Of a stretch of DNA of 64,000 nt, positions 6,620 through 63,469 are shown in pieces. A program made the position numbers and the translations under genes. Under the pieces are notes generated by a model. It saw nothing but the letters and a program-made list of their open reading frames with translations, searched no databases and had not been told where the DNA came from. This DNA is from Ginglymostoma cirratum (Eukaryota), in assembly GCA_024137785.1 (NCBI GenBank), contig JAHRHZ010000049.1:5975295-6039294 (forward strand), given 5' to 3'. How positions within the stretch are numbered: the first letter of the stretch is position 1; each line of letters begins with the position of its first letter.

Positions 6620-6830
6620 TTGCAAAAAAGAGATGTGCTGTCGAAGATTTTTATCTTGCGCTCATCAGGACAGAATTGCAAGAGCACCAACTTTCAAAAG
6701 GAGCAGCAATTTGTATGAGAAAAGTTGCTTATTGGTTTGCAAGTTGATTCTGATTGATAGAGGCAATGCCATAGAGAATGTACTGGGAGGTGTTACCCTT
6801 CTATGGGTTTTGCTTAATTAAAACAAAAGG
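6620..6830 (-). mobile_element. Hammerhead-bearing repeat, family D (PLE-like)
   Basis: Minus strand 6673-6638 reads CTGTC-CTGATGA-GCGCAAGAT-AAAAATCTTC-GACAG; related copies at 35160-35340 and 37100-37435. Confidence 0.55.
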
Positions 6831-7019
6831 TGCAATGTCTGACTATTTTCCTTTTTTAGATTTAAATTATTAGTTGAACTTCTAATGTACCATGTCTCTA
6901 TTTTAAGCAACTCTGAAATTTTAAGATGTTTTCTGATTTCTTGGAATAGCTGACTGTCCCATTTATTTGTAACATTATGATATATACATAACTAATCATA
7001 AGAACTCACTTCAGTAGAG

Positions 7020-8228
7020 TTGTTTGCTCTGTTCAAGAGGATTGATGAAGGCAGAGTGGTGGACGTGATCTACATGGACTTCAGTAAAGCATTCGACGAA
7101 GTTCCGCATGGTAGACTAGTCAACAAGGTCAGATCACATGGAATACAGGGAGAACTAGCCATTAGGATACGGAACTGGCTCAAAGCTAGGAGACGAAGGG
7201 TTGCTTTTCAGACTGGAGGCCTGTGACCAGTGGTGTACCACAAGGATTGGTGCTGGGTCCACTGCCTTTTGTCATTTATATAAATGATTTGGATGTGAAC
7301 ATAGGGGATACGGTTCATAAATTTGCAGATGACACCAAAATTGGTGGTGTAGTGGATAGTGAAGAAGGTTACTTCCGAGTACAAAGGGACCTTGATCAGA
7401 TGAGCCATTGGGCCGAGGATCGGCAGATGTCGTTTAATTTAGATAAATGTGAGATGCTGCATTTTGGAAAGGCAAATCAGGGCAGGACTTATACATTTAA
7501 TGGTAAGGTCCTTTGGAGTGTTGCTCTACAAAGAGACCTTGCAGTGGAGGTTCATAGTTCCTTGAAAGTGGAGTTGCAGGTAGGTAGGATAGTGAGGAAG
7601 GTGTTTGGTATGCTTGTCTTTATTAGTCAGTGCATTGAATATAGGGGTTGGGATGTCACAGGACATTGGTTAGGCTACTTTTGGAATACTGTGTGCAATT
7701 CTATCCTCCCTGCTATAGAAAGGATGTTGTGAAACTTGAAAGGATTCAGAAAAGATTTACAAAGATGTTGCCAGGGTTGGAGGGTTTGAGCTACAGGGAG
7801 AGACTGAATAGGCTGGGGCTATTTTTCCTGGAGCATCAGAGGCTGAAGGGTGCCCTGATGGAAGTTTATAAAATCATGAGGGGCATGGATAGGATGAATT
7901 GTCAAGGTCTTTTCCTCAGGGTAGAGGGTACAAAACTAGAGGGCACAGGTTTAAGGTGAGAGGGGAAAGATTTAAAGGGTCCTAAGGGGCAATTTTTTTC
8001 ATGCAGAGCATAGTGCATGTCTGGAATGAGCTGCCAGAGAAAGTGGAGGAATCTGGTACAATTACAACATTTTAAAAGGCATCTGGATGGGTACATGAAT
8101 AGGAAGGGTTTAAGAGGGATATCGGCCAAATGCTGGCAAAGGGGACTAGATTAATTTCGGCTGTCTGGTTGGCAAGGATGAGTTGGACCGACGGGTCAGT
8201 TTCCATGCTGTACAGCTGTATGACTCTA
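7020..8228 (+). mobile_element. CR1 LINE, 5'-truncated, frameshifted RT
   Basis: VDVIYMDFSKAFDEVPHGRL, GVPQGLVLGP, KFADDTKIGG, LVRLLLEYCVQF, followed by a 3' UTR ending gactctat. Confidence 0.95.
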
Positions 8229-11200
8229 TCAGATTATAGAAGTACAAAGTTCATTCCCTGTGATCAATATTGTTTAGGTTTTCATCTGTTATTCCACCAG
8301 GGATCCTGTGAGCAATACCTTAGCTATTTCTTGCAGAGGTACAGGTTGCTTCCTTATGTGCCACACTGTTGTCTTGTAACTATCTCACTGGATTGATGTA
8401 TTTTTCAAAATTTCAGAAGTTGCTTACAGTAGCAGAAAGAACAAATTGGAAATGAGGTGCTGGCATGAATGTTTTTATTTCATTCAGTGGTACAGAACCA
8501 CCTGTAAAGGATAGGAATTACGGTAAATGAAATGACTGAAAAATAACAAGATCTTGTACTGTAAAGACCGTGTCATTTTTTTTTTCTGTATTTTTGATTG
8601 TGGACCAAAATAGAAAAAAAAACTGTTTTAAAAACAAGGATTGTGGAAGGAGTGCTGCATTTTTTTAAAGCAAGTTACAACACTCACTGTAAGTGTTATT
8701 TAAACTGATGTTTGTTTAAGCACTGGGTTAAGTTAGTTGCAGATGGGCTAGCACCATGGTGTGTGTACAAAGTGAAATTTGGCTGGCAACAAGTAGTTGA
8801 TTGGTCGGTGGAGTTGTGGATGACAAAAGCCATCTGCCTGCCAACTGTGTGGTTGGTTCTTGGGTACCTTAACAGCTTGTGGGCATGAATGATACCACCA
8901 GAAGCCTTCGGACCTCTAAAAGGGAAGGGAGTGGCAAGGACTTTGTGTTTCCTAACGTGAGCAATCAACAGGTGGCACAAATTACAGAGAGTTTAGAGTT
9001 TGTTTATTCTCTTTTATTGCACTGGAAGATAGAGAATTCTTTTGAAAAATTATCTGCTGAAATTTTCTGCTTGTATTTAGTTGTATTCTTATTACTAGGG
9101 TAAAGCTGATTTAGTTTTTCAACCTTTATCACCTTGTATGTCAGTGTGATGTTTTCCTTTGGAGAAATGTGGTGAATTCTGGTACTAGTTTTTACATTGG
9201 TAGGAAAGCTATCCTAGATTAAACAAAACTTCGATGTATTGGGACTGATTATTTCTTTTCTCTGATTTTTATTAAGATTCTAGAAATAAATTGTAATCTT
9301 GCTTTGCAAAATACTTTCGTTCTCAGGCATCCTCAATACGCTTACTTTACAACAAACATCCAATACTTTGATTCAAACAGTCTTTCATAGTTTCTATATT
9401 TGTGTTTTTTTTCTGTTTATCTCCTCCCACATTTCATCCGTTTAATATCACCTCCATTGTGGACAGGATATTTTGCTCCTGACAGATGCAGAAATTTTTT
9501 TTTTCAGATTTAAATAAAAATCATTTTGTATGAGAGAGTCAATAAACAAAACTTATTAGAAATAGAAGAGTACTAAGATGTTAAAACTTATGTGGAAAGA
9601 CACACCTGATTGAGCAAGGTGGTACAGGAAAGAGAGAGGCAACAGAACACACAGAACCCACCACCTGGGTTATTTCCACTGCATTAATCAAAATGATCCC
9701 CAAACTCTTATTTCTACACACACTTAGCACCTGGACTGAAACAAACATTATGTGCTTTGTGTGCCAAACCACAAAAATACACCAGGAACGGAACAAAACA
9801 TTTATTGTTCAAGTTGTGTATTTTTACAGGAAAACTAAGGTTTATTTGTTTTTCCTATTTCTTTAAATACACCAGCTTGAAATTTACTAATTTATGACTT
9901 AGTAAATTTTGATCTGTTGGATCAGTGTACTAAAGATTTTTACTTTGAGGCTGCTATTTATTGATAAATAATTACTAGTTATGTGGGCCATTCCTAAAAC
10001 TGTTGAATGTTTCACATCATTAAAAATAGCCCTACTTTTCTTTAACGGTAAGTTATTAAAGGTGTCCTCAATCCACTGTAGGTCAGCGTGCAGCATAGGG
10101 GAAATATTGCCAGAATGAATGTCTTGAAGCTCTTTGGTTTGGCAGTACTAAGTAAAACTGTTACACACAGTCAGTTCTGTTTTAGTAACTTCTGTCTCCT
10201 GGGAATGGCTGCTGGATAAACCAAGCACTATCTTTTTTTTGGAAGTTTCATTGAAGCTCTTAACTCTATTTTAAAACTGTGGTCTTATATGTACTGTTCA
10301 TGAACTGAACTGGTTTATAGCATGACCTGCTTTCAGTTTTCCAAGTTTAAAAACCTTAACAATGAACAACAAATATTTAAATGTTATTGTATGCTACACA
10401 TTATTATTGCTGTCATATTTTAATTTAGATTTTTTGAAGATTTTCTTAAGATTTGTAAATAATGCAACAGGGGTAGGCCATTCAGCCTGCACCAATTCAT
10501 GCTATCCTGGCTGATCAAACACTTTCATGTCTTTTACCCATCCTAACCCTGACTGTATTTATGCCTTTTTAATCAAAAATCTATTGATTTCTAAACATTC
10601 TCAAAGGCTGAGATTCCAAAGCCCTCTGAGGCAGAAAATTCCAAAGATTCACAACCCGTTGAACAAAAAAAATCCTCCTTTTCTCTGTCCTAAATGGTTT
10701 CCCTTCTACTTTTAAATTTGCCCCCTTCTTCTGGATGCACCAACCAGGAGAAACATCTTACCTGCATCTACCTTGTCTGTCCTTTTAAGTACTTGGTAGG
10801 TTTCAATGAAATTAACATCATTTTTCGAAACTCTAGGCAATGCAGCCCCTGTTTTGCCGCCTTCTGTTTTTCTTCATAGGACAGTCCTGTCATCCCGACA
10901 ACAAGTCTGGTGAACCTTTGTTGCACTCTCTCTATGGAATAATATTCTTTGTCAGAGAAGAAGACCAAAACACTGCAAACAGTATGCCATGTGTAGGCTA
11001 ACCAAGCTCCTACACGATTAAAACATGACTTCACTGCACTCAAATTCTCTTACTATAAACGGCTAACATACTAAATAGCTTGCTGAACCTGCATGTTTGT
11101 CTTCAGTGATTTATTGACAAGGACGCCTAAGTTCCTTTGTGCAGCTAGACTTTCCAACTTCTTATCATTAAAGAAGTACCTTGCACATCCATTCTTCCCA

Positions 11201-11280
11201 CAGTGTGGTAACCTTACATTTTTCCCATATATTCTATCTAGCATATTCCCACCCACCAAACCTGTTTAAAACTTCCTGAA

Positions 11281-11486
11281 ATAACAAGGTGTAGAGCAGA
11301 TGAACACAGCAGGCCAAGCAGCATCAGAGGAGCAGGAATGCTGCCGTTTTGGGCCTAGACCCTATTTCTGAAGAAGTGTCCAGGCCCGAAACGTCAGCCT
11401 TCCTGCTCCTCTGATGCTGCTTGGCCTGCTGTGTTCTTCCAGTTCTACACCTCAGATTCTCCAGCATCTGCAGTTCCTACTATCTC
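11281..11486 (+). mobile_element. Penelope-like fold-back element, family B, with minimal hammerhead
   Basis: Inverted arms (acacagcaggccaagcagcatcagaggagcagga / tcctgctcctctgatgctgcttggcctgctgtgt); 14-bp TSD taaaacttcctgaa at 11267-11280 and 11487-11500. Confidence 0.85.
11368..11395 (+). ncRNA. Minimal hammerhead ribozyme motif (CUGAAGA...GAAACGUC)
   Basis: CTGAAGA-A-GTGTCCAGGCCC-GAAAC-GTC; core intact, one mismatch in stem II. Confidence 0.65.
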
Positions 11487-14400
11487 TAAAACTTCCTGAA
11501 GCCTCTTTACATCTTCCTCACAACATCCATTCCAGCTTAGCTTTGTTTCATCTGAAAATTTGGAAGTATTACATATGGTCCTCAAATCTAAATCCATGAT
11601 GTGTGTTGTGAACCACTGGTCCCCCACGTATTGGTTCTTGCAGTGGCCCATTGGTGACAGCCTATCAACATAAGAATGATGCATTTATTCCTACTCTGTA
11701 TGTTCTATCCATTAGCCAACTCAGTCAATACGTTAACCCCAATGCCATGTGCTTTATTTTTGTGAATTAACCTCTTTTTGGGGAATGTTATCAAAAGGCT
11801 CCCAAAAATCCAGGAATAGTACAACATTGACTTCTCTTTGTCAGTTTTGTGAGTAACACCTTCAAAAAGCTCCAAGTTCATAAAACGTGATTCCTCAAAA
11901 TTTTCCATTCGCAAGTCTATGTTGACAGTACCCACTCAGCACATTATTATTTAACTGTCTGTCACATTCTTTATAATAGATATTAATACTTGTTCTGTTA
12001 CTGTGGTAAGGCTGACAGGACAGTAGGTCCCTGTTTTCTCTGTCACTCACTTCTTAAATAATGGGGTGATGTGCTTGTTTCCAATCTGCTGGAATCATTC
12101 CAGAATCTATAGAATTTTGGAACCCGATCACCAGTGCATTGGCCATCTCTATAGCCACTTATTTCAACGCTCTGTGATGTTGAATGTAAAGTCCTAGGAT
12201 CTTATCTATCTCCAGACCCATTAATTTCTCTACCTCAACTTTCTAACTGATACTAATTTCCTTCAACTCCTCATTCCTGTTAGTTATTTGTAACTCTGAT
12301 TCTGGGAGAATCTTTGCACCTTCCTCAGTGAGAACAGGCATAAAGTAATCATTTAGTTTCTCTGCTATTCCTGTAATCCCCACAATAAATTGTCTTGATC
12401 CTGCCTGTAATGCTCCCATTTTTTTCTTAGCCAAACATTTCCTTTTCATGTACCTATAGATACAGGTATATTCCTTTTTTTAAAGCTTTTTGTTAGATTG
12501 CATCTATACTTTGTACTCTTTCCTTATCAGTTTCTTGGTCCTCCTTTGTTGTATTTTTAAAAACTACCCAATCCTCAGATTTGCTACTATTTCTGGTAAC
12601 TTTACAAGTCTTTTACTCTTTTACAGTGGCTAATTTCCTTTGTCAGGCATAGTTGACCTTCTTTTGAGTATTTGCACCTTTAAGGAATGTATGGTTATTC
12701 TGAAACATGTTCTTTCGAGGCTATCCAGTACCTTAATGCATGGATACCTTTAACGTATTTTTCTAAATCATCTCTGCCAATTTGTGCCTATAGCTTCATG
12801 ATTTCCCTTAGTCACGTTTAACAGCCTTGATTCAGATTTAACTACCCACATACAGACATAGAATTTTACATGTTCATACTGTGGTCACTCTTCTTTAAAG
12901 GCTCTTTTACAACAAGGTTATTGACTAGACCTTTTTCATTACATAATACTCAATCTAAAACAGCCTATACTCTAGTTGTGCCCTCAACACACTCTTCTGG
13001 AAAACTACTTTTAACAGACGTCAACAAGTCATTCTCCACCACTTTAGTGCTTATTTCGTTTACCCAGTATATATACAGATTGAAGCCTGTATTTGCTTCA
13101 TTCTTATTTTTTCTGAAGAAAAGCATAGTCATGCAAAGTTTTGAAAAGAAGGCACTGAAAGAATAGAAGGTTACAACATAATATACTTATTACCCAGGGA
13201 CTCTAAGCAAGTAAGTAGATTATCTCAGTAATCAATCAGCACCTCAAATATTATTGTGGATATTAGTTAGGGGTATCATTTCAGGCCTTTTTTATTGTTG
13301 CTATGTTGCAAGGTAGGTTAAATAAAAACAGTGAGGAGAGTTTGGCAGTGAACAAGCAGTTAAGGCTATAAGATGTTGCGTTTTTATCCAAAAGTTATAA
13401 TAAATGGTTTCTGTCTTGTACTTCTGGAACATCTCTATATTTGAATAGCACTCTTCCTAACCCTATATCTAAACTAAGAGTGTACATTGTGAACAGGAAC
13501 AATGCCACATGAGAGATTCCCACTCCTCCTCTTGATCTGGGCCAATGATGTCAGCGCAATGATGAACAGCCAAGGATAGACTCATACCACAAACCTTTTG
13601 AAGTAACATTCTTAGTGAAGGTTTCAACGTATTTGTTTGATCACCACATTCGACACTACATACAGATGGACCCTCTTTCCATGAAGATGTCATCGGAAGG
13701 TTCTGAGACTTCAAGCCACTCATGCTTATGAAGAACTCATCCAATTCCCGGTGCAACCATTCAGATGATAGCCAGAATATCAATCAATGGCACCTTCTTT
13801 GTTAATGCTCCAGGAAGATCCTGTTTGTTCATGTCTGTCATGGTACAGTATCTATCTAGTTAAGTAGAGTTTGGACAACGCTGTGCTCTCAGTGGGCAGT
13901 TGCCCCACTTTCAATCATCTGTTGCTTACTTGTGATGTATGAGTGACCAGGTGAACAACCAACAGTCCGTTGTTGGCCCCACGCTCTGAGAAGATGCGTC
14001 GGCTGCGTGAGACCTGTGATAGTACCTTTGGAGTGTGTGACCTGAAGGGCCTCTTTCTGTGCTGTCGACTTCTTCTATGACATCAATGTTTTCTGTCAAG
14101 ATGAGAAAATTTGGCTTTATTCATTATTGTGCATGTGAACATACTCCTCTTGTAGTTAACGACAAATCAACATGAGTAACTGATGTGTGCCATGCACTGC
14201 TTTTGTATTTAATTCTGTCATCTGGTAGCTGGAATCTCTTATTTCCAATGGCTAGCTACACTGAGACTCTGCTGATTTCCAGTTTTTTTTCTCTCTGCAC
14301 TATTATGCTATGAGCTCTGTAGAGTGCTGTGCCTAGCACCCTGTCTTTCTCTTGTTTCTATGCTATCTTGATTGATGGGGAAGGAACAAAGAGACCAAGA

Positions 14401-15189
14401 AGTGAGAGTTGTGGCCTGTGTTGAATGGATGAATGGAGCCCATTTGTTAAGGATGTCAATGAGGGCAATGCATGACAGTGCTAAGTATGTGGATGAATAT
14501 TTACGATGGATCAATGGAAATATGAAAAACTGCGTAGAAATGTATACTGACAAAGTAATTTAGGATGAGAAGTGATACATTGGAATAGGCTGGGGAAGGC
14601 GCACAAGGAGTTTGTAATTAACATCGTGGTGGGCAAATCAAGATTGCTCTTGTCTTTCCTGCAATACACAGATTGTTAAACTGTTTTCTACATTATATCC
14701 AGGAGCCGGACTCCCTCTGCTGACCTTTTTCACTGCCTCTAACCACACCTTCAAGGTGTCTCTAACCAGCTCCTTCCGTGCATTGCAAGGAAACTCTGAG
14801 TCCTCTCAGCTGCTCTACACAGACACTCAAGTGTGTGTAATTGCACAGCCTTTGGCTGCTTTTACTCTATTTTGCCAAATTCTTCTTTGGATTCCATCTC
14901 TAACATTGCATGGTTGAAATATCCATTTAAATACTGCTGTTGAAATTGCATAAAGTCCCAGTCATCAGGAAAGTACTGGAAGATATCGGCGACACTGCTA
15001 TTAAGTGAAAATTGTTCAGCAATGACCTACTCACTGACACTTGGTTTGTGTTTGCTCGGGGCCATTCACCTCTGATCTCAGTCCAGACTTGGTCTAAAAA
15101 TGGACACAAGCTGAACTCAAGAAGTTCATGGAGAGTTCATGGAAAATGGAGAGTATTCCCTCACACTATTGTCTGTGCCTTGTAAGTGG

Positions 15190-16025
15190 AGGATAGGTTT
15201 AATATCTATATATAGGTATTCAATGGCATTACCGTCACTAAATTCTCCCACTGTCAACATATTGGAAGGGGGCGTTATCATTGACTAGAGACTCAACTTG
15301 TTTTGCCATATAAACACAGCGGCTACAAGAGCAGGTCAGAAGCTAGGAATACTGTGGTGAGTAACTCACCTCCTGACACCCCAAAGCCTGTCCACCATCT
15401 GAAAGGCACAAGTCAGGAGTGTGATGGAATACTCCCCACTTGCCTGAATGGGTGAAGCTCCAACAACGTTCAAGAAGCTTGACACTGTCCAAGACAAAGT
15501 AGCCCGCTTGATTGGCATCACATTCACAGACATCCACTCCTCCCCTACCAACTCTCAGTAGCAGCATTCTGTACTATTCACTGCATAAATTCACCCAAGA
15601 TCATTAGTCAGCACCTTCCAAGCCCACGATCACTTCCATCAAGAAGGACAAAGGCAGCAGATACATGGGAACACCACTACTTGCAGGTTCCTCTCCAAGC
15701 TACTCACCATCCATTCTTAGGAAGGGTCACTGGACCTGAAACATTAACTCTGATTTTTTCTTCACAGATGCTGCCAGACCTGCTGAGCTTTTCCAGCAAC
15801 TTCTGCCTTTGTACTCACCATCCTGACTTGGAAATGTTGCTGTTTCTTCATTGTCACTGTGTCAGAACCCTGGAACTTCCTCCCTAATGGCATTGTGTGT
15901 CTACCTACAGCACATGGACTACAGCACTTCAGTAAGGAAGCTCACCACCACCTTTTCAAAAATAATTAGGTTTGGCTAATAAATGTTGACCAGCCAGCGA
16001 TGCCTACTTCCCACAAAGGAATAAA
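15190..16025 (+). mobile_element. CR1/L2-group LINE 3' part
   Basis: RT C-terminal-like sequence (aggcacaagtcaggagtgtgatggaatactcccca = KAQVRSVMEYSP) and tail aataaatgttgaccagccagcgatgcc. Confidence 0.8.
15713..15811 (+). mobile_element. PLE-like single arm, family C, with degenerate hammerhead
   Basis: cttaggaagggtcactggacctgaaacatt...agatgctgccagacctgctgagc; 12-bp TSD tactcaccatcc at 15701-15712 and 15812-15823. Confidence 0.8.
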
Positions 16026-17106
16026 AACAAACTTCTGCCACTCGGAGATGTTCAGGTTGTGAAGACTTATGTCTAGGTTTCTCTGTTATGAGTTTTCCCA
16101 GTGACTGCACTTGGACTTCATTGATGGGCAGGACAAGGTCATGCATTCGTCCATCCCTGCTCTTATCTCTTGAAATCTGTTACATTTGTCAATTGCAGTC
16201 TTCCTGTCTGGAATTCATGCTGGTTAGCTCTCCGTTGCTGTTTGTCTACTTCTTTGGTATTTCCATCTTTAATTAAAGACTGGAATTTTTATTTTAGCAC
16301 ATGAACTCAAATTCTGATTTACCTTTTGGTACTCTAATGGTGACTCTAGAAACATAGGAACAGGAGTAGGCCGTGTGGCCTCTCAACCCTGTACCTCCAT
16401 TCAGTGAGATCATGGCTGATCTGTGGCCTCATTCTGTCTGGGGCCCATAACCCTTACTATCATTATTTAACAAAAAAATTTATCTCTTTTTAAAATTAAC
16501 AATTGATCTAGCATCCCCTGCCGTTTGTATAAGAGAGAGTTCCAAACCTCTACCATCCGTTGTGCAGAGAGTGCTTCCTGATATCGCCCCTGAATGATCT
16601 GACTCTATTTTTTAATAAAGACTATGCCCACTGGTTCTAGAGTCCTTATCTTTATTTACCCTGTGCTTTCCTGTTACTGTCTTGCAGACTTTGATCAGAC
16701 AACCCCTTAACCTTCTAAATTCTAGCGAAAACTGGCCTAGTTAGAATAATCTTTCCTGATAACATAAATTCTCAAGTCCAGACATCTTTCTTGTAAGCTT
16801 ATATAGTACTCCCTCCAAGGCCAATGTCCTTCCGAAGGTGTGGTGTCCAGAATTGCTCGCACTACTACAAGGAGGTCTAACCAGTGTTTTGTACAACTGC
16901 AGCTTAACATCTGGGTCTTCATACTCCTGTCTTCTGTACATAAAGACCAGCACTCCATTTGCCTCTTTGATTATTTTCTACACCTATTCGTGACATTTCA
17001 AAGGTCTATGCACCTGAACCCCAACTCTCTTTGAACATATGAGATAACAAGCATGGGGCTGGATGAACACAGCAGGTCAAGCAGCATCACAGGAGCAGGA
17101 AAACTT

Positions 17107-17134
17107 GACGTTTCGGGCCTAAACCCTTCATCAG
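17107..17134 (-). ncRNA. Minimal hammerhead ribozyme, intact core
   Basis: Minus strand CTGATGA-A-GGGT-TTAG-GCCC-GAAAC-GTC. Confidence 0.8.
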
Positions 17135-17591
17135 AAANNNNNNNNNNNNNNNNNNNNNNNNNNNNNNNNNNNNNNNNNNNNNNNNNNNNNNNNNNNNNNN
17201 NNNNNNNNNNNNNNNNNNNNNNNNNNNNNNNNNNNNNNNNNNNNNNNNNNNNNNNNNNNNNNNNNNNNNNNNNNNNNNNNNNNNNNNNNNNNNNNNNNNN
17301 NNNNNNNNNNNNNNNNNNNNNNNNNNNNNNNNNNNNNNNNNNNNNNNNNNNNNNNNNNNNNNNNNNNNNNNNNNNNNNNNNNNNNNNNNNNNNNNNNNNN
17401 NNNNNNNNNNNNNNNNNNNNNNNNNNNNNNNNNNNNNNNNNNNNNNNNNNNNNNNNNNNNNNNNNNNNNNNNNNNNNNNNNNNNNNNNNNNNNNNNNNNN
17501 NNNNNNNNNNNNNNNNNNNNNNNNNNNNNNNNNNNNNCACAGCAGGTCAAGCAGCATCACAGGAGCAGGAAAACTTGACGTTTCAGGCCTT

Positions 17592-17619
17592 CTGATGAAG
17601 GGTTTAGGCCCGAAACGTC
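17592..17619 (+). ncRNA. Minimal hammerhead ribozyme, intact core
   Basis: ctt-CTGATGA-A-GGGT-TTAG-GCCC-GAAAC-GTC-aag; stem I ctt/aag; predicted cleavage after 17619. Confidence 0.8.
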
Positions 17620-17757
17620 AAGTTTTCCTACTCCTGTGATGCTGCTTGACCTGCTGTGTTCATCCAGCCCCATGCTTGTTATCTCAGATTCTCCAGCATC
17701 TGCAGTACCTTTTATCTCTGATACAATTTTAACCCCACTGCGAAGCCTCTTCTAAGG

Positions 17758-18051
17758 ATGCCTACCCTGAAGAAGTTACCCTCCTCCCTCCGGACAAACC
17801 TCAGGGAATCTCTCTCCCACTGCAACTCCCTCATCACCTCTTCGGCCTTGAAACTGCTCGACCACGTCCTGAAGCAAACCAGGTACCACAGCCACATCAC
17901 CTTTCTTAGTACCTGCCTACAGAACCAGATCATCCCCAATGGACTACAATCCACATTCAAGCCTTTCCAATTTGGCCCCAACCGTGACAATATCTACATG
18001 GAGAACATTGAGACCCTCCAGAAGCGCTTCTCCCTGCGACTCCTGAAAAGA
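17758..18051 (+). pseudogene. N-terminal ~98 codons of a Penelope-like element ORF (RT and GIY-YIG absent)
   Basis: ATG-initiated, stop-free MPTLKKLP...HITFLSTCLQNQIIPNGL...; the HxxFLxxCxxxxIIPxGL motif is recalled from PLE N-termini; lies directly downstream of the pLTR. Confidence 0.7.
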
Positions 18052-18055
18052 TTTT

Positions 18056-18083
18056 CTGATGAAGGGTTTAGGCCCAAAACGTC
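18056..18083 (+). ncRNA. Minimal hammerhead, G12A mutant copy
   Basis: CTGATGAAGGGTTTAGGCCC-AAAAC-GTC; G>A at 18076 in a CpG context. Confidence 0.7.
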
Positions 18084-22220: not shown

Positions 22221-22244
22221 GGACTCAAAGTGGGCTTTTCCTGG

Positions 22245-50960: not shown

Positions 50961-51464
50961 ATGACGTTGAAGGACCTAAGGAGAGAGACCCAGAACAAAA
51001 GATATTTGGAGATAATTTTTACTTTAAACAAAGTCTAACATTTTGTACTATTTTCAAGGTTATATAACATTAAGTTTTTTGAGCCAGATTAAAATGTACT
51101 CAGAACCTCATTTCAGTGTATTCTCTTTGAAAAGAGACAATTGTTCCACAGTCTTGATAACATGTGTTATTACAGAAAATGTCCTAGAGTTGCTTCAGAG
51201 GAACTGTCTTATCAATAACTGAGAATTGTTTGTTATGTTCAGTTTTGTGGATGAATTATGAAACTATTGATGCATTTGGCAAGAATAATGCAACATATGT
51301 TTAAAGAAATCTTGAATTCAAAACAGTGAAAAATAATTTACAACCTTTTACTAACTAAGCGAAATAGGAGTAATGTTAACGTTCAATATTCAGGAATTTG
51401 TAATTTTTTTGCAAATATTTCTTGGGATCTATAATAATACTTTGTTCTCCCTTGTTTATTCTAG

Positions 51465-51636
51465 GAAGAGGATCAACCACTTGTAAAAGATAACATGGAT
51501 GATGAGGATGACTATCTCTTCATAATTGATCAGACAGCTCGTGATTTTCTTGTAATAAAGGCTCCTGATTATGAAAGCTACTATAGTCAACAACAGAAAG
51601 ATAAAAAGGTCCTTTTTACCCCCAGTGTTCTTACAG
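51465..51636 (+). CDS. CC2D2A: CC2D2A exon (EEDQPLVKDNMDDEDDYLFIIDQTARDFLVIKAPDYESYYSQQQKDKKVLFTPSVLT)
   Basis: ctag|GAA...G|gtaata, 172 nt, phase 0-1; recalled human DDFVAVRPADYES...MLFIPSRQT. Confidence 0.92.
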
Positions 51637-52289
51637 GTAATACATGAAGTATAGCTCCTTGCATGCATTAAAGACATTCTGCGGTTACAATGGCTGATTA
51701 CATTCTAGGGCTTATTTTATGAGATTAAAAAGTTTCATGATTTAAATAGCATTTGTGATATTTGCAATGTGTAAACACTGGTCTGAAATTCCTTTCTTTA
51801 CTTTTTAATGAATTAACTTATTTTTTAAAAAATGTATGTCTGTATTAAAATACCAGGCAGGTGTATATTTCAATGAGTTTATTAATAATTTTGAACTGTG
51901 AGTTAGCCAAAATAGGTGAATACCTGAGCTGTAGATTGAATAGTTGTGTTTATTTAGATACTTCCTATTAATTAGTGTTCATGATGTGTATTAACCCTTT
52001 ACATTATACTGTGTTAATTATTAGACTACGTGATCAGTGATATCAGATGATAACACATTGCATGGAACCAGAACCTGAGCGTGTAGGATTTGAGAGATGT
52101 CCTAGTGTGATCCCTCTCGTATATATTATGTATATTTAATGAAAGGTTGTTGATATTCACTAACAAGCGCTTGACCAACTTTTATCAACAACCCCGACAT
52201 GATTTTACTATGTGGTGGCAAGCCATTTACAAACTGCTTTGATAAGAGTCCTGAATGGCACCATGGAAGGTAGAAGCATTGAAACCATC

Positions 52290-52970
52290 AGCAAAGCAGC
52301 ATGAATTCCCAGGGAATACGCAAAGCAGTAAGCAGACGATCATTTGGTGCTGTAGAGAGACAGAAGCTCAAGAATCAATTTAAATTGCCTTTCTCTTGGG
52401 TATGCATTCCTTTATGGCAATAGCCATGGTTTTCAAATCATTGAGATCATTTAGAGAATGCAGGGGAACATCTAAATCTTATAGTCAATCAAAAGTAATA
52501 GCACTGCATGATGCAGCATTGAACATGTCAATCTGAAGAATCCAAGGTGTCAGAAATAAAGTATAGAACAGACCTGCAGTATTTTATCATGCAATGACTC
52601 TTACTGGAAATGTTTATTATTTACAACAGTCTGATACTAACCACCTTCTACACTTATATAAAAAGAATGTTCATTTAACCACACAACCAATGCACCAGAA
52701 AAGCCTGCAGCAAGGAACACATTGATGTCTCACTGAGGAAGGGTCACCAGAGCTGAAACGTTAAATCTGACTTCCCTCCACAGTTGCTGCCAGACCTGCT
52801 GACCTTTTCTACCAACTTCTGTTTTTGTTTCCGGTTTGCGGCATCCACAGTTCATTTGGTTTTCACAACAATGTGCAAGTGTCCAAGCATTTGAGGATAC
52901 TATGGAGCAAGACGCATACTTCACGGGTATATATATCAGACCACTGGATTATTTCTGCTACCCTGATCTC
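52290..52970 (-). repeat. Arm 2 of the old inverted repeat pair (interrupted by a family C PLE)
   Basis: Reverse complement of 50400-50960. Confidence 0.75.
52731..52855 (+). mobile_element. PLE-like single arm, family C, hammerhead CUGAGGA...GAAACGUU
   Basis: CTGAGGA-A-GGGTCACCAGAGCT-GAAAC-GTT at 52733-52762; stem II partly mutated. Confidence 0.78.
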
Positions 52971-55714
52971 AAAGATCCACAGCACATTTGGTTTTGCTGA
53001 CATCATAGTTAATGTCTTGGAAACTAATTATATTTCAGATGTAGGAGCTGTAGTGTCCATTCTTTTGGCTTCCACACCGTGACTGAAGTTTGAGCTGTAT
53101 CAACCATTTGAGGGTCCAGAAGCTTTTCCAATATGGGAGTGCACGCAGGTGACTGCTACTCTTATCAGATCTGTGATAATCTATATGCCGTTTTTGATCA
53201 TCATAGCTACTTGTTATTCTTAAACTCTTGCATATCTTGAATATTCCTTATTCAACAGCAGCAGAGGAAGCTGGAGTTGCTGCATTATGCTGTGAAATAG
53301 TTTTCATCAATGAATTTCTATCCGTAGGACCAAAGGTGATTTGTGCAAATCATTCATTTCTTTTAGAAGAGTCCAGATTCAAAGAAGGAGGTGGAGTCCC
53401 GCCATGAGAAGGATCATAAGATATACTAGATTTACATTTGTTCATTAATCTGTAAAACATCAAAATAAACGTATCACAAATGTTAATGATTTGTTGGAGG
53501 AGGTGGTTCTGGATTTTATAATGCTTTTTGAGGATGGTACAATATCAACAACCCTGGTGAATTTTTACTATTTCTTTGAGTAACATTAGTGTCTTATTGC
53601 CAGTGTTGATGCAAAGTTGCATTTGTGTCACAGTTCAACTGAAGTCACACATGCCAGACAGTAGCAGCAATCATTTGATGCAGCGATTCCTGTTCCCAAA
53701 GAAACACCAATACTAGACCCTCTTCATATTACCAAAGTGACAGTTTTAAGCAGAACGGCTTCACAATCAAAAAATGAGGAGTTCTAATTCAAAACAACAG
53801 CATGTATAAAGACAACATTTTGGATGCACATTGAAAAAAAAAGTGTTTTTGAAATGAAAGTCTTAGAGACTGCAAAGGAGCAGTCACTTATGAAATTGTT
53901 GCTGCAAAATGTTTGATTTTCATAAGTTATTGAAAGAAAACAGAGACCTTCAAATTCTGCAATCCAACATAAGTGAACCGTTGGTAGAAGTTCAGATGGA
54001 CTGTAAAGTAGAGAAATTGGAATGAACGCAACTGCTTTAAGACCAGGTGTTATTGGTCTGCAGGAAATTGATTCGAGAAACACCAGAATTAGGATCTGAA
54101 AAATAAAAGATTATGGAAAGTTTCCACAAATCCTATGCAGAGACTACCATTATTCTGGTGACATTGACAAAAGAAGTGCTCCAGTAATGGAAAAAGACTC
54201 TCACTGAACTGTTCAAAACTTGAAACTCGTTATAAATTTTTAGTTAGGGAAAATACCGCTGCATTCAACAAGTTCTGAGAAAGAGAAAATAGATTCAAGT
54301 TTGTAGAAAATTGTACTAGAAAAGTAAGCCTTCATTCATGAAAAACATCAATAACAGACTGTTGATGATCTTTCGAGAAAGATATTAGTAAGAAATATAC
54401 AGGAAAATGCAGACCTTAATCCTGTAACAGCCAGTCAGCACAAATTTTTGGATGAAATTAGACTCATAGGGCAGTAATTGAATCTTAATGTCCTGTTATT
54501 ATCTGATCTACAATCTACTCTGCAGATTAGTGTATGGCAAAGATAGATTGCCTGGAGAAAATACCACATTTCAGTTTTGAATCATCTCCATCCTCAAACC
54601 AGCCTACAAGTCAGAGTACTGCAGCATTGCTTCACGTGAATAGCTATCTATTGTCAGTTTTTTTAACCGAACATACAGATCCCATTCCTGATGAATGACT
54701 CCCTGAGGATCCACTTTCATCGAAGCACCACAGCCTTTCTTGGATCCTGATGATGTGCTCCACTGTTGCCAAGTGTCTCAGGAGCCTCATCCCTCATAGA
54801 GAAACATCCTCCAGTTCATCCGTGTGCCAATCCCTCCATTGCCTATGGAGCCAGCAATTTTTACAGTGAATCCAGTGCTGGTATTCGCCCACTCCAAATA
54901 ATGAACGTACCCTAGTCTTATCCTGGCATGTGGAAGGAAGGAACTCCTTTCCTTTGATCCAGAGATGTCTTTGAGCACTCTCAGAACTGCCTTAAACATG
55001 TGAGATTGGGGAACCACCGCCTTCACAAATTGGTTTCCACCCTAAGTGTTGCAGGGAAGTTGTTATTTTTTCATCGTCAAACTAGTCTTTGAGACAATCT
55101 TCATTCTTCCAGTTTTCATCCTCATCCTTTCCTTGGGATAAGGAGTTGAGTTGTTCTTAGGTCATTATTAAAAACATTGTGAAGTTTTTGTGGGGAGCTG
55201 AAAGTGTTCCATTTTCTCAGGCACTTCTTATTTCTCTATCCCTCTAGAGAGATGATATGCCGAAAAATTAGAGGAATAAGATTTGAACTTTGGTCTTTGC
55301 ACCTTTCTCTTATTTTTCGTATAGTTCAAATTTTGAAGATTTGCCCCTTGTGTTGGTAGTTCACTTATCCCTCCGCTCTGCCTCTACATTCAGATCATTG
55401 GTGCTACAGCTTACATGCCAGCTGTTTTCAAAGACTTGAACCCAGTTTGTCCCTTTTAAAGGGAACAACGTAGTGTACATATTGCCAAACCTTCCTCAAT
55501 ATGGGCAGGGTTGTTGGAGATTGATTCCTTGAATGGATGAGATTTTGCCTAGGATGGGAGAATGATGGGGAGTAGAAGTCAGAGGAAAATGCCAAGTATT
55601 ATAGGGGAAAGGTGAAACACTTGCGGGATGTAGTATAATGGGTTAATACATTAACATTTAACTGGGACCTAAGAGTGGAACATTCCAAAGATGTCCACTC
55701 TTGCCCTCTCTGTG

Positions 55715-56120
55715 TTTTATTTAATGGAATGTGAGCATTGCTAACAAGGCCAGCAATTATTGCCCATGCATAATTGTCCTTCAGAAAGTGTTTGTGCATA
55801 ATTGTCAACCACTGCGGTCCATTTGGTGTTGGATTCTACACAGTATTTGAAGGCAGTTGGGTACAATTAAGTGGTTTCATAGTCCTTTTTAAAGGGCAGT
55901 TAAGACTCAACTTTATTGCTGTGAGTCTGGTGTCACATGTAGGTCAGACCAGGTATAGGGAGCAAATTTTCCTTCCCTAAAGGACATTAATGAACCAAAT
56001 GGGTTTCTACAATAACCAGCAATGGTTTTGTTGTTTCCATCACTGAGACAAGTTTTTAATCAAAAACTTACTGATTTAGTTTAAATGCTACTAGAATTGT
56101 AATATGTAGTTTTGGTATTA
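55715..56120 (-). mobile_element. SINE sharing its tail with the CR1/L2-group LINE
   Basis: ccagcaattattgcccat...gggcagttaagactcaac...cacatgtaggtcagaccagg...ttccttccctaaaggacattaatgaacc; reverse complement of the 29955-30275 family. Confidence 0.65.
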
Positions 56121-56124
56121 GCAG

Positions 56125-57262
56125 CAGTCATACAGCACAGAAACAGACCCTTCTATCCAAGTAGTCCATGCTGACCATGTTTCCCAAACTAAACTAGTCC
56201 CATTTACCTGCATTTGCCCCATATCCCACTAAACCTTTCCTATTCATGTACCTGTCCAAATGTCTTTTAAATGTTGCATCTGCCATTTCCGCTGGCAGTT
56301 CGTTCCATATACACACCACCTCTCCATGAAAATGTTGCCCCTCAGGTTCCTTTTAAATCATTGCTCTCTCATCTTAAGACTATGCCCTCAAGTTTTGAAC
56401 TCCCCCATCAAAAGGAAAATATCTTTGTTATTCACCTTATCTATGCCCCTTATGATTTTATAAGCTCTATAAGGTCACCCCTCAACCTCCTATACTTCAG
56501 GGAGAAAAGTCCCAGTCTATCCAGTCTCCTCTTATAACGCAAACCCTCTAATTCTGTAACATCCTTGAAAATCATTTCTGAACCCTTTCTAATTTAATAA
56601 TGTCCTTCCTGTAGCAGGGCGACCAGAACTGTATGCAATACTCTAACAGTGGCCTCACCAATGTTCTGTAAAGCCAAAAACCGACATCCCAACTCCTATA
56701 CACAATGTTCTGACCAATGGAGGCAAGCGTGCTGAACACCTCCTTCACCACCCTGTCTACTCGTGTCGCCACTTTCAAGGAACTATGTACCTGCACCCCT
56801 AGATCTCTCTCTTTGACAACACTCCCCAGGGCCTTATCATTAACTGTGTAAGTCCTACCTCGGTTTGTCTTACCAAAATGTAACACCTTACATTTATCTT
56901 AATTAAACTCCATCTGCCCATTGGCCCAACTGATCAAGATCCCATTGTACTCTCAGATAACCTTCTTCACTTTTCACTATACCACAGATTTTGGTGTCGT
57001 CCGCAAATTTACTAACCATGCTTCCTATATTCTCATCCATCCTGTTTATATAAATGACAAGCAATAGTGTACCCAGCACCAGTCCCTGCGGAACACTGCT
57101 GGTCACAGGCCCCTGGTCCGAGAAACAACTCTCCATCACCACCACCTGTCTCCTACCATCGAGCCAGTTGGCAAGATCTTCCTGAATCCCATGTGATCTA
57201 ACTTTACTAAATAATCGACCATGCGGAGCCTTTTCGAAGACCTTGCAGTCCAGGTAGACAAT
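56125..57262 (-). mobile_element. CR1 LINE, 5'-truncated
   Basis: VPQGLVLGTLL, VSKFADDTKICG, MLHFGKTNRGRTYTVN, LVRPLLEYCIQFWSP. Confidence 0.95.
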
Positions 57263-57592
57263 ATTTGTTTTATTTGTTTTGTGATATGATTTTTAAAAAA
57301 ATTGTCAAGAACTTTCTGATGCTTTTGGTTCTAGTCAACCAACCCATAATAGAATTGACAATGATTTTAATATTTTGTTTCATGCTAAACACTGACTTAA
57401 AAACTGCTAATCCTGTTGAATGGGGTGCTCCGTTGAATGCTGTTTGAGATTATTTGATGCCACAGTGGAAGATCCATACAAACCTTGTGGAGTTGTGTAG
57501 GATTTATTCCCCAGTCAGGGAAGCTGGGGCCGTTGGCTCTTCCTGCCTTTCCCTGAGCTGGTTATCTTTATCAAATTGTTCTTGATGTACAG

Positions 57593-57729
57593 TGCCCACA
57601 TCAGAGAAGATTCCTGAAGACATGCGTCCACGGTTTCTTGAAGATGAAGGTATTTATGTTGGTGAAAGACCAAAAGTTTCCAAATCTAACCAGAACATCC
57701 TTGAGAATCGTCTACTTAAAAACAAAGAG
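57593..57729 (+). CDS. CC2D2A: CC2D2A exon ([46 protein letters not shown])
   Basis: acag|TG...GAG|gtaggt, 137 nt, phase 1-0; recalled human [30 protein letters not shown]. Confidence 0.96.
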
Positions 57730-57845
57730 GTAGGTAACAAGTATAAGGGCTGTGGCCCCCGCTTTCAGGAAATAAGCAATCACTGTATTTTAGGAAAATA
57801 TTCGTTTAACAACTTCAGCAAAAATATTCTCATTCACAATCCTAG

Positions 57846-57977
57846 GGCAAGAAATGGTTTGGAAGTGACGGTAGAATTATAGCCTTACCTAATCCTATTA
57901 AACAGACCTACACCAGACCGCCAATTTTCTCACTCCATGAAAAAGTGGATCCTGCAATAGAAATATTCTATAAAAAG
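57846..57977 (+). CDS. CC2D2A: CC2D2A exon ([44 protein letters not shown])
   Basis: ctag|GGC...AAG|gtaagt, 132 nt, after a 116-nt intron; recalled human WFGDDGRILALPNPIK...LYKK; gene continues beyond the window. Confidence 0.96.
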
Positions 57978-58103
57978 GTAAGTGAAACCATTATAATAAT
58001 GCAATGAAGGTCTTTGTAGCCCTATAAGTTAGTTGAATGTTTATCAATCTTTATGACTATGAATTTGTTTCCTATCAAGAGAATAATGTATTGACAAGAA
58101 AAA

Positions 58104-60680: not shown

Positions 60681-60749
60681 AAGTGAATTTTGCAAGAGCA
60701 TTCAGAGCAGTAACTTAAATATTTTAATGCATGTTCCCGATGGAAGTAG

Positions 60750-61363
60750 AGATAACAAAGTGTGGAGCTGGAGGAACACAGCAGGCCAGGCAGCATCAGA
60801 GGAACAAGAANNNNNNNNNNNNNNNNNNNNNNNNNNNNNNNNNNNNNNNNNNNNNNNNNNNNNNNNNNNNNNNNNNNNNNNNNNNNNNNNNNNNNNNNNN
60901 NNNNNNNNNNNNNNNNNNNNNNNNNNNNNNNNNNNNNNNNNNNNNNNNNNNNNNNNNNNNNNNNNNNNNNNNNNNNNNNNNNNNNNNNNNNNNNNNNNNN
61001 NNNNNNNNNNNNNNNNNNNNNNNNNNNNNNNNNNNNNNNNNNNNNNNNNNNNNNNNNNNNNNNNNNNNNNNNNNNNNNNNNNNNNNNNNNNNNNNNNNNN
61101 NNNNNNNNNNNNNNNNNNNNNNNNNNNNNNNNNNNNNNNNNNNNNNNNNNNNNNNNNNNNNNNNNNNNNNNNNNNNNNNNNNNNNNNNNNNNNNNNNNNN
61201 NNNNNNNNNNGCATCAGAGGAACAAGAAAGCTGACATTTTGGGTCGGGATGGTCCCGATCCAAAACATCAGCTTTCCTGTTTCTCTGATGCTGCCTGGCC
61301 TGCTGTGTTCCTCCAGCTCCACATTTTGTTATTTCTGACTCCAGCATCTGCAGTTCTTGCTAT
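60750..61363 (+). mobile_element. PLE fold-back element, family B, hammerhead core lost (contains a 400-N gap)
   Basis: Near-perfect hairpin centred on gggtcgggat/ggtcccgatcc; TSD ttccYgatggaagtag at 60734-60749 and 61364-61379. Confidence 0.85.
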
Positions 61364-61697
61364 TTCCTGATGGAAGTAGTTGCATCTGGGCTATGATCTC
61401 ACCGGAAAACAATATATGAATAAAGAGAGAAATTTTCTGAAGTAATTGCTGAGGACTTGAATTCCAAAGCTGTATGAATAATGAAGGTTCTGGATTAAAT
61501 CTGCCCACCTATATAAACAAAACTAAATTTGAAAGGCATGTCATTTTATGCACAGGCTGAAGTTACCATGAAGGACTCCCCTTCTCAACCTCTCCCCTCA
61601 CCTGAGGCGTGGTGACGCTCAGGTTAAACCCACCACCAATCATTCCTCTGTGATGAGAGAGTAGCCCAATGCTCCAAGTTGCCATAATCTTCCTCAG

Positions 61698-61795
61698 TTC
61701 TTAGGAAGGGTCACCAGACCCGAAACATTAACTCTGTTTTTTCCCTTCACAGATGCTGCCAGACCTGCTGAGCTTTTCCAGCAACTTCGTTTTTG
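61698..61795 (+). mobile_element. PLE-like single arm, family C, degenerate hammerhead
   Basis: CTTAGGA-A-GGGTC-ACCA-GACCC-GAAAC-ATT followed by the family C arm. Confidence 0.8.
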
Positions 61796-63374
61796 TTATG
61801 GCAACTTTACCTTTTATCTTTTTAAATTTTATACTTACTGAATTCAACTAAGTGTCTTAAATCAACAATATCCAATCTACCACGACGATAATTTTACCAT
61901 GACTAAACTCCTGCTGAAAGACATGGTATTTCAATTAGGATGCTGGAGAGAAAAGTAGTGCTAGACACTGTGTGACTTTGTCAAGGTGAAATTATTTTAT
62001 GCGTACTCAGTTATACAGTCCTCAGTTTCATGAATCAGCAAATTGAGCAACCTTATCAAATATCATTGATTATTGACTGGAGTTCAATCAGTGGACTTCT
62101 TATTACTTACTGAGTTATACAAACTGAAATTGAGAATGTATTCGTTAAATTGCTGCAACTGAAGGAGCAGGCATTGATGATTTTAATTAGCTGATGGCTA
62201 CTGATGTTCTGTACCAAGGGCAAATCAGTTGGTTGAATGTCAATTCATTTAAACTGAATTTAAAAGAATTTTGTCACATCAGTTTGAGATATCTTGCTTT
62301 GTACTGATCTGACAGTAATTCTTTGTTTTTTCTATATCTATCTAATCTTGTAAGCCATTCATCTTTGCACAAGTATATCCCTTTTCCTCAAGTTTGACAC
62401 TGTCTTTAAAAGTTTTGGTTAACCACAGAAAATAGTCCTCACTTATGAATTTACCCCTATTTTAAACCATAGGAATTGACTGGATCCTAACCACTGAAGA
62501 GATACTCAGCAATAGCTAGTTCTTTCCCCACAGAAAATAAGAACCAATTCCTACAGGGTGAAAAAGTTGGAAAGAACAAAGGAGTACTTCCTCCCTCTAG
62601 CTTGCAAAGTCACGTTTGGATGTCATTATTCATTTTTGTGCAGTTTTGTGCTCAGCCCCAGGCACTGTAAAACTGTTTCAGCTGATTACCTTAATTAACC
62701 ATCTTTAACTGATCTCAAGTAGAGAGGGCTTTAAACATGATGAAATTAGAATTTAAACAGAAAACTGCAATACAATATTAACTGTGAAATAAAAATAAAA
62801 TTTGATTTTTGGACTTGCTTCATTCGCAAGCTACTAGCACTCTGTTCAAAATTGTGTGCCACTCAGTTCTGGAGGTTACAAAAGTGGTAATTCACCATGA
62901 TCGTCATCACAGAATATATTATTCATGACTTCAGCTAAAGTTAGGTTTTGTGATGGTGGAAGGAGGGAAACCTGACTGTAAGCGTTTAGAAGTGCCATTG
63001 ATTATGTGCAAACATGAATTTCAGTTCTGAACAAGTTCCCTGTCCCCATACCAGTTATGCCATTAGTTGGACATTTATTATCCAAATAGATAGCAGTATA
63101 CAGCCAACACAGCTGGACGGGAAATTCCGTGAAAATCGCAATAGTATTGCACAACAGTTCTCCAGTGATAAATTCCAATGCAACTAAATTGAAATCAAGT
63201 TTGTAAATAGTGGGAAATAAAGCATTTTTACTTTTGGTGTTCGCTGTCAAAGGCAGTGATTCTGCGGTCAGGCAACGTGCAGTGTAGACACAAATACTAT
63301 GTCCCAACACATTTGGAATATTTTGGGGTCTATTTAGGCAGAATACCCTCACATTCAGTTCAATCAAGATGTAT

Positions 63375-63469
63375 CAGAGATAAAAGGTACTGCAGATGCT
63401 GGAGAATCCGAGATAACAAGCATGGGGCTGGATGAACACAGCAGGTCAAGCAGCATCATAGGAGCAGGA
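63375..63469 (-). mobile_element. PLE single arm, family A, truncated just short of the hammerhead
   Basis: Nearly identical to 42791-42886; 13-bp TSD aatcaagaWgtat at 63362-63374 and 63470-63482. Confidence 0.88.

Follow-up and report, generated by a model that had tools for sequence, protein, structure and literature searches.

Closest described systems

Minimal type I hammerhead ribozymes are carried by Penelope-like elements (PLEs) of metazoans (Cervera and De la Pena 2014, PMC4209133), and it is with this class that we compare a set of short repeats in the introns of CC2D2A of Ginglymostoma cirratum, contained in a 64,000-nucleotide stretch of contig JAHRHZ010000049.1 (assembly GCA_024137785.1; the whole stretch is referred to as the window). 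We consider it likely that these repeats represent several waves of insertion of PLE pseudo-long terminal repeats (pseudo-LTRs), followed by neutral decay within the introns.

According to the founding survey (PMC4209133), monomers of minimal PLE hammerheads show no cleavage and dimers cleave weakly; its 40 species include lamprey, teleosts, coelacanth, frog, turtle and snake, but no sharks. The motifs described there and those in the window share the type I order, the extra base after A9, the closing pair G10.1-C11.1, a loop-less palindromic stem III and, as far as copies cut at this point show, a short stem I, and in both cases many families are present per genome, mostly as single truncated copies, with opposite-strand pairs 100-700 bp apart. 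A Neptune motif of Acropora digitifera (PMC4209133 supplement) has nearly the same design as the older copies of the repeat group designated A below. Already known from that survey are the class itself and its multi-family pattern, together with the extra base, palindrome and opposite-strand pairs (PMC4209133), while a fixed 5' boundary at the core, as seen in the shark copies, is not described in the available parts of that survey.

In Poseidon, a PLE of Anolis carolinensis (Frangieh et al. 2024, PMC11167929), the reverse transcriptase (RT) starts internally at two sites that set the tail, unprocessed RNA is the main substrate, and cleavage of the pseudo-LTR hammerhead needs protein and is dispensable for insertion in vitro; two RT start sites, a pseudo-LTR hammerhead and an uncleaved template are likewise features of the account given here. 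Poseidon belongs to another clade, and its open reading frame (ORF) starts at stem II, whereas the conserved frame of the ORF captured in the window has its first ATG 166 nt after C3, beyond the tail. The anatomy of endonuclease-positive (EN+) PLEs (PMC8557442, PMC3846280) is similar in that the 5' pseudo-LTR is inverted, a tail of 30-40 bp is confined to one end, the target site is duplicated, solo pseudo-LTRs occur and inverted junctions assemble poorly, although those papers describe variable 5' truncation and, in rotifers, duplications of 8-10 bp, in contrast to the clustered 5' ends and duplications of 12-19 nt in the shark. Non-LTR retrozymes (PMC7229834; bioRxiv 10.64898/2026.07.22.740005) are likewise short non-coding hammerhead repeats derived from PLE pseudo-LTRs, and the latter preprint reports PLEs and tandem retrozymes across vertebrate classes, one chondrichthyan included; retrozymes are, however, head-to-tail tandems of units that each contain a complete hammerhead, whereas in the shark the copies stand alone or head to head and the one partial dimer has G12A in its second core. 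Finally, an intronic PLE expansion is also reported for the whale shark, a close relative, with annotation at class level only (bioRxiv 10.1101/443036, PMC8455134).

No description of these shark families or of the fixed 5' boundary was found in the literature searched, which lacks most subscription papers, and Dfam, Repbase, the whale shark repeat library or preprint supplements may already hold these families. With this locus, minimal PLE hammerheads are documented in carpet sharks, which the founding survey did not cover; as the class is known, the value of this is modest.

Hammerhead motifs in the window

A strict scan for CTGA-N-GA ... GAAA-CG-T(C/T) returned exactly five motifs (named here by the position of C3), namely 11368 (+), 17592 (+), 52733 (+), 17134 (-) and 42919 (-), which are the five that the earlier note had named from the sequence, and a base-by-base audit showed that all of them carry the motif. 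A family-agnostic descriptor comprising the exact core, a stem II of at least 4 bp and a palindromic stem III matched three positions (17592+, 17134- and 42919-), against a mean of 0.03 and a maximum of 1 in 30 dinucleotide shuffles. These three matches have the same motif sequence throughout and derive from two insertions (17134- and 17592+ belonging to the same one) of a single young subfamily, A1; being copies of one subfamily, they are not independent. Furthermore, 17134- adjoins a 400-N gap with 54 nt of overlap between its two sides and may therefore be an assembly duplicate of 17538-17589.

The 5' core strand is kept in 13 motifs, ten belonging to repeat groups A and B and three to group C. 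All 11 core bases are present in five of these 13, the others being off by one or two bases. Mismatches in stem II occur in two of the intact cores (11368 and 52733), and a core together with an unbroken stem II is found only at 17592+, 17134- and 42919-. The defects in A/B are G12A (18056), C3A (41647), G5U (15716 and 61700) and G5 lost, or the copy cut at that point (35088), while group C cores carry changes at G12, G8 or C3. The assertion that the core varies only at N7 and H17 is circular when applied to core-intact copies.

The motifs fit the consensus published for the minimal PLE hammerhead (PMC4209133), with a type I order and the core CUGANGA ... GAAA ... UH. The extra A between A9 and G10.1, flagged as a tolerated variant at the outset, is present in all nine audited A/B motifs, and stem II is closed by G10.1-C11.1. 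Stem III is the loop-less palindrome ACGU in seven of these nine, and the palindrome AAGCUU in one of three group C copies, the other two being one base off. As to the claim that stem II keeps pairing around different loops, 94.9% of stem II cells in A/B are paired; changes are one-sided, with one extra pair in B, and none of the five pairs shows a two-sided change. The covariation score of 0.236 was equalled by 22 of 500 shuffles, with just 9 distinct rows in the alignment. Moreover, two of the three stem II sequences offered as examples come from broken cores, i.e. 35088 (G5 lost or cut) and 61700 (G5U, with a non-palindromic stem III).

An Rfam scan at E values up to 10 gave 11 matches, none of them to a hammerhead family, presumably because the Rfam models are unsuited to a motif that lacks a stem III loop. 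Weak microRNA (miRNA) matches, below gathering scores, correspond to inverted arms. A covariance model built from the ten A/B motifs found those ten and three inverted arms and no further families, its other 15 matches having E values above 0.3 with two overlapping known copies. Profile searches (nhmmer) revealed no new A/B copies below E 0.5, and none were found in the reversed-sequence control.

The absence of an Rfam hammerhead match, the likeness of the inverted arms to hairpins of miRNAs or miniature inverted-repeat transposable elements (MITEs), seen in the weak miRNA matches, and a stem II free of two-sided covariation would all suit a chance look-alike at the end of a non-PLE repeat, be it a MITE or the end of a short or long interspersed element (SINE or LINE). 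We regard this as extremely improbable in view of the descriptor excess over shuffles (3 vs 0.03), the presence of the same core on two unrelated bodies with different palindromes (ACGU in A/B, AAGCUU in C), and the tailed, asymmetric arms, the long target duplications and the PLE ORF start described below.

Repeat families

Self-comparison and profile searches assigned the 15 insertions to one repeat superfamily (groups A and B, 12 insertions) and one unrelated repeat (group C, three insertions). From core to tail, A and B align throughout the ~100-130 nt repeat, their pairwise identity being 54-69%, and the profile of either group retrieves the other. A1 is a young clade of A (94-98% identity), the remaining A copies being older and poorly resolved, while B copies are 72-88% identical among themselves. 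The body of group C is unrelated to A/B, with ~100 nt kept upstream of the motif, a stem II of 2 bp, no extra base after A9 and the palindrome AAGCUU. An estimate of about five lineages is fair, counting young A1, the poorly resolved older A copies, B and C, whereas the suggestion of otherwise different bodies applies to C only. Five unrelated bodies with just the core in common were rejected, A and B being homologous along the entire repeat, and the notion of a multi-family set of working ribozymes could not be upheld, as most copies are decayed and A and B form one homologous superfamily. The occurrence of the same core with different palindromes on two unrelated bodies provides the best sign of motif selection in the source elements.

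Within group C, CCAAT-like boxes lie 5' of the motif, and one copy has an AATAAA-like signal ~15 nt past the cleavage site. A weak fourth candidate (38893-39043, E 5e-4) was excluded from all counts. The group A arm at 34999-35088 and the group C copy at 35142-35299 lie on the same strand, 53 nt apart. Within 41558..41866, a 21-bp piece of pseudo-LTR is tandemly expanded at 41707-41830, with a 10-N gap.

Penelope-like anatomy and the captured ORF

In five of the seven group A insertions an inverted, tail-less arm stands head to head with a direct arm bearing a tail of ~31-33 nt, and tailed and tail-less ends both finish in a TATCTC-like motif; no inverted arm was seen in group B. Target duplications of 12-19 nt with at most one mismatch flank seven of the 15 insertions, compared with 0.8% of 3000 random flank pairs. 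In addition, the youngest insertion contains an open frame (17758-18051) with carpet-shark relatives at 63-86% identity (five matches among 283 candidates) and 59 matches in a representative protein library. One relative, P0055 (of 60), has a CxxxxCxxC linker and a GIY-YIG domain, the zinc-finger-like linker being seen only in the distant relatives P0055 and P0018. Relatives P0043 and P0021 carry the pre-RT and DKG-like motifs. Since relatives continue into the linker, GIY-YIG, pre-RT and DKG-like motifs, the frame at 17758-18051 is assigned to the N-terminus of a PLE ORF.

The inverted arms, the tail, the target duplications and the ORF start identify the repeats as pseudo-LTR remnants of PLEs, an origin of which we are highly confident, and they agree with the earlier note's placement of minimal dimer-type hammerheads in PLE terminal repeats. 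Judging from sequence features, the source elements of A and B were probably Neptune-like and endonuclease-bearing; a CX2-5CxxC linker is also found in Nematis and not in Neptune alone (PMC8557442). One young family (A1, with copies 96-98% identical) is thereby tied to its ORF, and it may point to a recently active vertebrate PLE.

Several observations weigh against this assignment. No target duplication was found for eight of the 15 insertions, wider flank searches giving background-length matches only. Stem I, which measures about 3-5 bp in minimal PLE hammerheads, is short (0-4 bp) in the A/B copies, which are cut at stem I and lack the native upstream sequence, compared with 5 bp in group C copy 6668. 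No inverted arm, tail, target duplication or ORF was found in group C, and the motif is the one feature that would link this group to PLEs. The GIY-YIG match of P0055 (Pfam E 2.7e-4) falls just under the Pfam cut-off, this protein is without an RT and is probably a spliced gene model, and only one of 59 scanned relatives gave a Pfam match. Within the window, neither an RT nor a GIY-YIG domain of the element's own was found, and none of 640 candidates was a full-length ORF joining the N-terminal region of P0043 to RT and endonuclease. ESM Atlas gave no usable match for the window frame and linked P0043 to DUF8422 clusters at low recognition, a result that was not used.

The captured frame itself had no Pfam match, and a similarity between residues 155-163 of P0001 and the tail translation (E 0.087) was too weak to use. 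The last ~130 residues of P0005 (Rhincodon typus, prostatic acid phosphatase-like isoform X1) represent the same PLE ORF N-terminus, indicating that this gene model absorbed or exonised a PLE fragment. RNAalifold analysis of nine arms identified a conserved 7-bp helix between body and tail in A and B (17639-17703 and equivalents in eight other arms), with no two-sided change; on this predicted fold, the helix may frame the RT start sites.

Clustered 5' ends and a proposed mechanism

Ten of the 13 direct arms begin between -4 and +5 of C3 (offsets read by eye) and none extends beyond a few bases upstream; one of the remaining arms begins inside stem II and two begin 5-6 nt past the cleavage site, and 11 of 13 retain sequence upstream of that site. 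An inverted arm, the ORF or a target duplication pins down six of the start junctions, and for four the position follows from the absence of shared sequence. Under a constant-truncation model the chance of stopping in the -4 to +5 interval is ~0.03 per copy, and the fixed 5' end is common to A1, older A and B. Similarly, the inner ends of all five readable or inferred inverted arms (11363, 17589, 41643, 42922-42925 and 61249) lie between A9 and the stem II 3' strand, which places the head-to-head junction over the ribozyme hairpin.

The clustered 5' ends and retained cores suggest run-off copying of uncleaved RNA, and they offer a genomic handle on the role of the hammerhead in PLE transposition, which has been called unclear (PMC8557442). 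Run-off, or a stop, at the 5' edge of the core on mostly uncleaved RNA is the account that we tentatively favour, although we would place it at slightly less than an even chance. On this reading, the pseudo-LTR of each source element opens with a minimal type I hammerhead, and its palindromic stem III would pair two copies such that each core cuts the site of its partner, as is established for this class. PLE-associated hammerheads reportedly cleave as dimers, as the title of a study by Lunse, Weinberg and Breaker has it. The PLE protein would nick the target and begin reverse transcription internally on the RNA, at either of two positions separated by ~31-33 nt, the choice of site resulting in tailed or tail-less ends. 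Mostly uncleaved RNA would then be copied up to a fixed point just 5' of the core, generating solo pseudo-LTRs of ~130 nt, a second, tail-less copy would often be laid down head to head, and a template jump would have captured the ORF start once (17720-18052). The ribozyme would be selected in the source elements and not in these intronic copies. It is possible, if rather doubtful, that carpet-shark PLEs make a fixed-length 'strong-stop' product extending from the tail to the 5' edge of an uncleaved hammerhead, in which case the ribozyme would mark the 5' boundary of the RNA and the fold-back point of the inverted arm, beyond its role as scissors.

Rather than a transcription start, the fixed boundary might represent a 3' splice site just before stem I, or a stall or jump of the RT at the folded ribozyme. 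In the PLE of D. virilis the 5' end of helix I coincides with the end of an intron, and in the published consensus a U-rich tract precedes helix I (PMC4209133); in the window, an AG stands just before the first arm bases at 18056 and 61700, and the inner ends of the inverted arms, all within the ribozyme hairpin, would also fit. Splicing would nevertheless be expected to leave a common upstream exon, which measures 46 nt in D. virilis, and the shark copies share none; both AGs may belong to the flank, and the motif is predicted to be weakly folded and hence a poor roadblock; we consider this explanation possible at best.

Dedicated non-autonomous masters, retrozyme- or SINE-like, that begin at the hammerhead would account for the fixed 5' end through a short source. 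The direct arm-spacer-direct arm arrangement of the youngest insertion can be read as a partial dimer of a 464-nt unit (17592-18055), i.e. a retrozyme monomer that dimeric cleavage would release, with circularisation and ~1.3 rounds of copying to follow, and the 2026 preprint (bioRxiv 10.64898/2026.07.22.740005) reports tandem retrozymes with a mean consensus of 363 bp, derived from PLE pseudo-LTRs, in one chondrichthyan. No tandem array of such units occurs in the window, however, where the spacer is present once, and the spacer-arm junction lies at the 5' edge of the core rather than at the cleavage site. Furthermore, the motif is of the minimal PLE type, whereas the retrozymes of PMC7229834 carry canonical hammerheads, and A1, older A and B all have the fixed 5' end. 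Such masters are accordingly judged unlikely. A retrozyme array as such was rejected, since at least two head-to-tail complete units are absent from the window and the second core of the lone partial dimer carries G12A.

Decay of the copies and possible effect on the host gene

The 15 insertions all lie in introns, 245-5395 nt from the nearest mapped exon and with no exon overlap, and nine are sense to CC2D2A. Within genomic copies the cores decay as their flanks do: pooled changes amount to 10/135 core positions vs 85/1120 downstream positions, and equal decay is seen in each of the three groups (1/49 vs 6/370, 5/46 vs 47/438 and 4/40 vs 32/312; Fisher p 0.58-1.0 each). Selection on the genomic copies was therefore discarded, as cores lose bases as fast as flanks, and the copies very probably decay neutrally. 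Between the majority consensuses of A1 and B, on the other hand, the core is identical at 10/11 positions compared with 41/66 downstream (p = 0.04). A core conserved between A and B in combination with decaying copies indicates that conservation acts on the source elements and not on the copies. G12 and the centre of stem III sit in CpGs, and with a CpG observed/expected ratio of 0.26 in the window this accounts for part of the core decay.

Two group B copies at 88% identity, 15716 and 61700, both carry G5U along with a stem III that is not palindromic. Since this substitution is not of the CpG type, a master with a catalytically dead core may have been amplified; from these two sequences, the shared change hints that a dead master still spread.

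Intronic ribozymes could in principle serve the host by cutting CC2D2A pre-mRNA, or through domestication like the intronic hammerheads of amniotes. The nine sense insertions would allow for this, as would 17592, with its partner site 464 nt downstream. This motif is, however, the only host-sense copy with core and stem II intact. In folding models the double hammerhead of 17592 with 18056 is strongly disfavoured, at +26 kcal/mol without the inverted arm and +40 kcal/mol with it, and inverted arms form long hairpins over the motif in two insertions (-138 and -118 kcal/mol), these energies leaving out tertiary contacts and help from proteins. Minimal PLE hammerheads are, in addition, weakly active in vitro (PMC4209133) or protein-dependent (PMC11167929). 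With the lone intact sense copy predicted to be buried in a hairpin, and cores decaying as flanks do, cleavage of CC2D2A pre-mRNA is unlikely, and a host function in general is considered very improbable. A canonical or domesticated intronic hammerhead was likewise rejected on the basis of the missing stem III loop, the lack of an Rfam match and the equal decay of core and flank.

Density, copy number and assembly gaps

The 15 insertions total 2,799 of 62,790 called bases, or one per ~4.2 kb, in agreement with the one per 4-5 kb first estimated, which corresponds to ~240 per Mb. The two insertions with an intact motif (in 62.8 kb) correspond to 3.9-115 per Mb and to 12,000-370,000 per 3.2 Gb, the genome size of the whale shark (Poisson 95%). 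Because the window was picked on account of these motifs, the figures are guesses that lean high, and a high genomic copy number is plausible from one selected window. For comparison, ~4,000 minimal hammerheads are reported in coelacanth and 9,000 in Xenopus (PMC4209133), and up to 126,247 canonical motifs in axolotl (PMC7229834 and the retrozyme work of bioRxiv 10.64898/2026.07.22.740005). If the strong-stop route is true, it would account for several hundred thousand pseudo-LTRs, with an intact motif in at least tens of thousands, a number above the coelacanth and Xenopus figures that could equal the axolotl total, and would provide a large natural dataset on the purpose of the PLE hammerhead.

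The three 400-N gaps (17138-17537, 42926-43325 and 60811-61210) all lie inside inverted pseudo-LTR junctions, which account for these gaps and call for caution with counts from shark genomes. The sides of two gaps overlap, by 54 nt at 17138-17537 and by 18 nt at 60811-61210, indicating that the gap sizes are placeholders.

Coordinates of features, host gene and other repeats

Table 1. Repeat insertions, their parts and the mapped CC2D2A exons (window coordinates)
Feature	Position	Strand	Remarks
Youngest composite insertion, A1: inverted arm(s), direct arm, PLE ORF start, direct arm + tail	17042..18183	+	Self-comparison
19-nt target duplication of composite insertion	17023-17041 and 18178-18196		Flanks of 17042..18183
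Inverted tail-less arm	17042..17137	-	Intact motif, C3 17134; adjoins 400-N gap
Inverted arm ending within stem II	17538..17589	-	
Direct pseudo-LTR arm + tail	17590..17719	+	Intact minimal hammerhead, C3 17592; predicted cleavage after 17619
PLE ORF N-terminal region, first 98 codons	17758..18051	+	Sense to hammerhead; open; abrupt end at next arm
Second direct arm + tail	18053..18183	+	Hammerhead G12A, C3 18056
A1 insertion	42791..43359	-	14-nt target duplication
Direct arm of that A1 insertion	42792-42921	-	Intact hammerhead, C3 42919
Inverted-arm stub in 42791..43359	43326-43359		Follows 400-N gap
A1 arm + tail	63375..63471	-	Starts ~5 nt 3' of cleavage site; no core; 13-nt target duplication
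Older A insertion: inverted arm 11281-11363, direct arm + tail	11281..11487	+	16-nt target duplication
Hammerhead of 11281..11487	C3 11368	+	Intact core, stem II mismatch
Older A single arm	34999..35088	-	G5 lost or cut there; no target duplication found
Older A insertion: inverted arm 41559-41643, direct arm	41558..41866	+	C3A at 41647; 13-nt target duplication
Older A insertion: inverted arm split by 400-N gap, direct arm from inside stem II	60748..61364	+	16-nt target duplication
Group B arm	15713..15812	+	C3 15716; G5U; 5-bp stem II; 12-nt target duplication
Group B arm + tail	52732..52862	+	C3 52733; core intact; stem II mismatch; no stem I pair
Group B arm	61698..61797	+	C3 61700; G5U; 5-bp stem II
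Group B arm	41055..41132	+	Starts ~6 nt 3' of cleavage site; no core
Degenerate group B arm	47299..47396	-	Core-region remnant
Group C copy	6607..6762	-	C3 6668; G12 lost; 5-bp stem I
Group C copy	35142..35299	-	C3 35202; G8A + further changes
Group C copy	37295..37451	+	U at C3 position 37392; G12 lost
CC2D2A coding exons, ~residues 6-419	1616, 6303, 20114, 21198, 29206, 31992, 38367, 47789, 51465, 57589-57980	+	Homolog mapping

The host gene lies on the + strand. One exon matches DUF5523 (Pfam, 34 window frames), and all ten homolog matches are elasmobranch CC2D2A-family proteins, those of Rhincodon (whale shark) and Stegostoma (zebra shark) ranking highest and Chiloscyllium also being represented; together with the ten mapped exon blocks and the intronic position of every insertion, this bears out the view that the repeats are found throughout CC2D2A introns. 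By comparison with relatives of 1580-1650 aa, the gene, which spans 1616..57980 here, runs on past the end of the window.

RT matches at 7190 and 56906 were considered as part of the hammerhead element and rejected, as they belong to a separate repeat of ~1.1 kb without the motif. RT-bearing fragments (Pfam RVT_1), probably LINEs, are located at 7069-8212, 56131-57258 and 25729-26424. Further multi-copy repeats form one set at 19335-19661, 27247-27558, 30724-31071, 33786-34000 and 60027-60374, and a second at 1936-2467, 15280-15712, 22948-23616 and 45818-46219.

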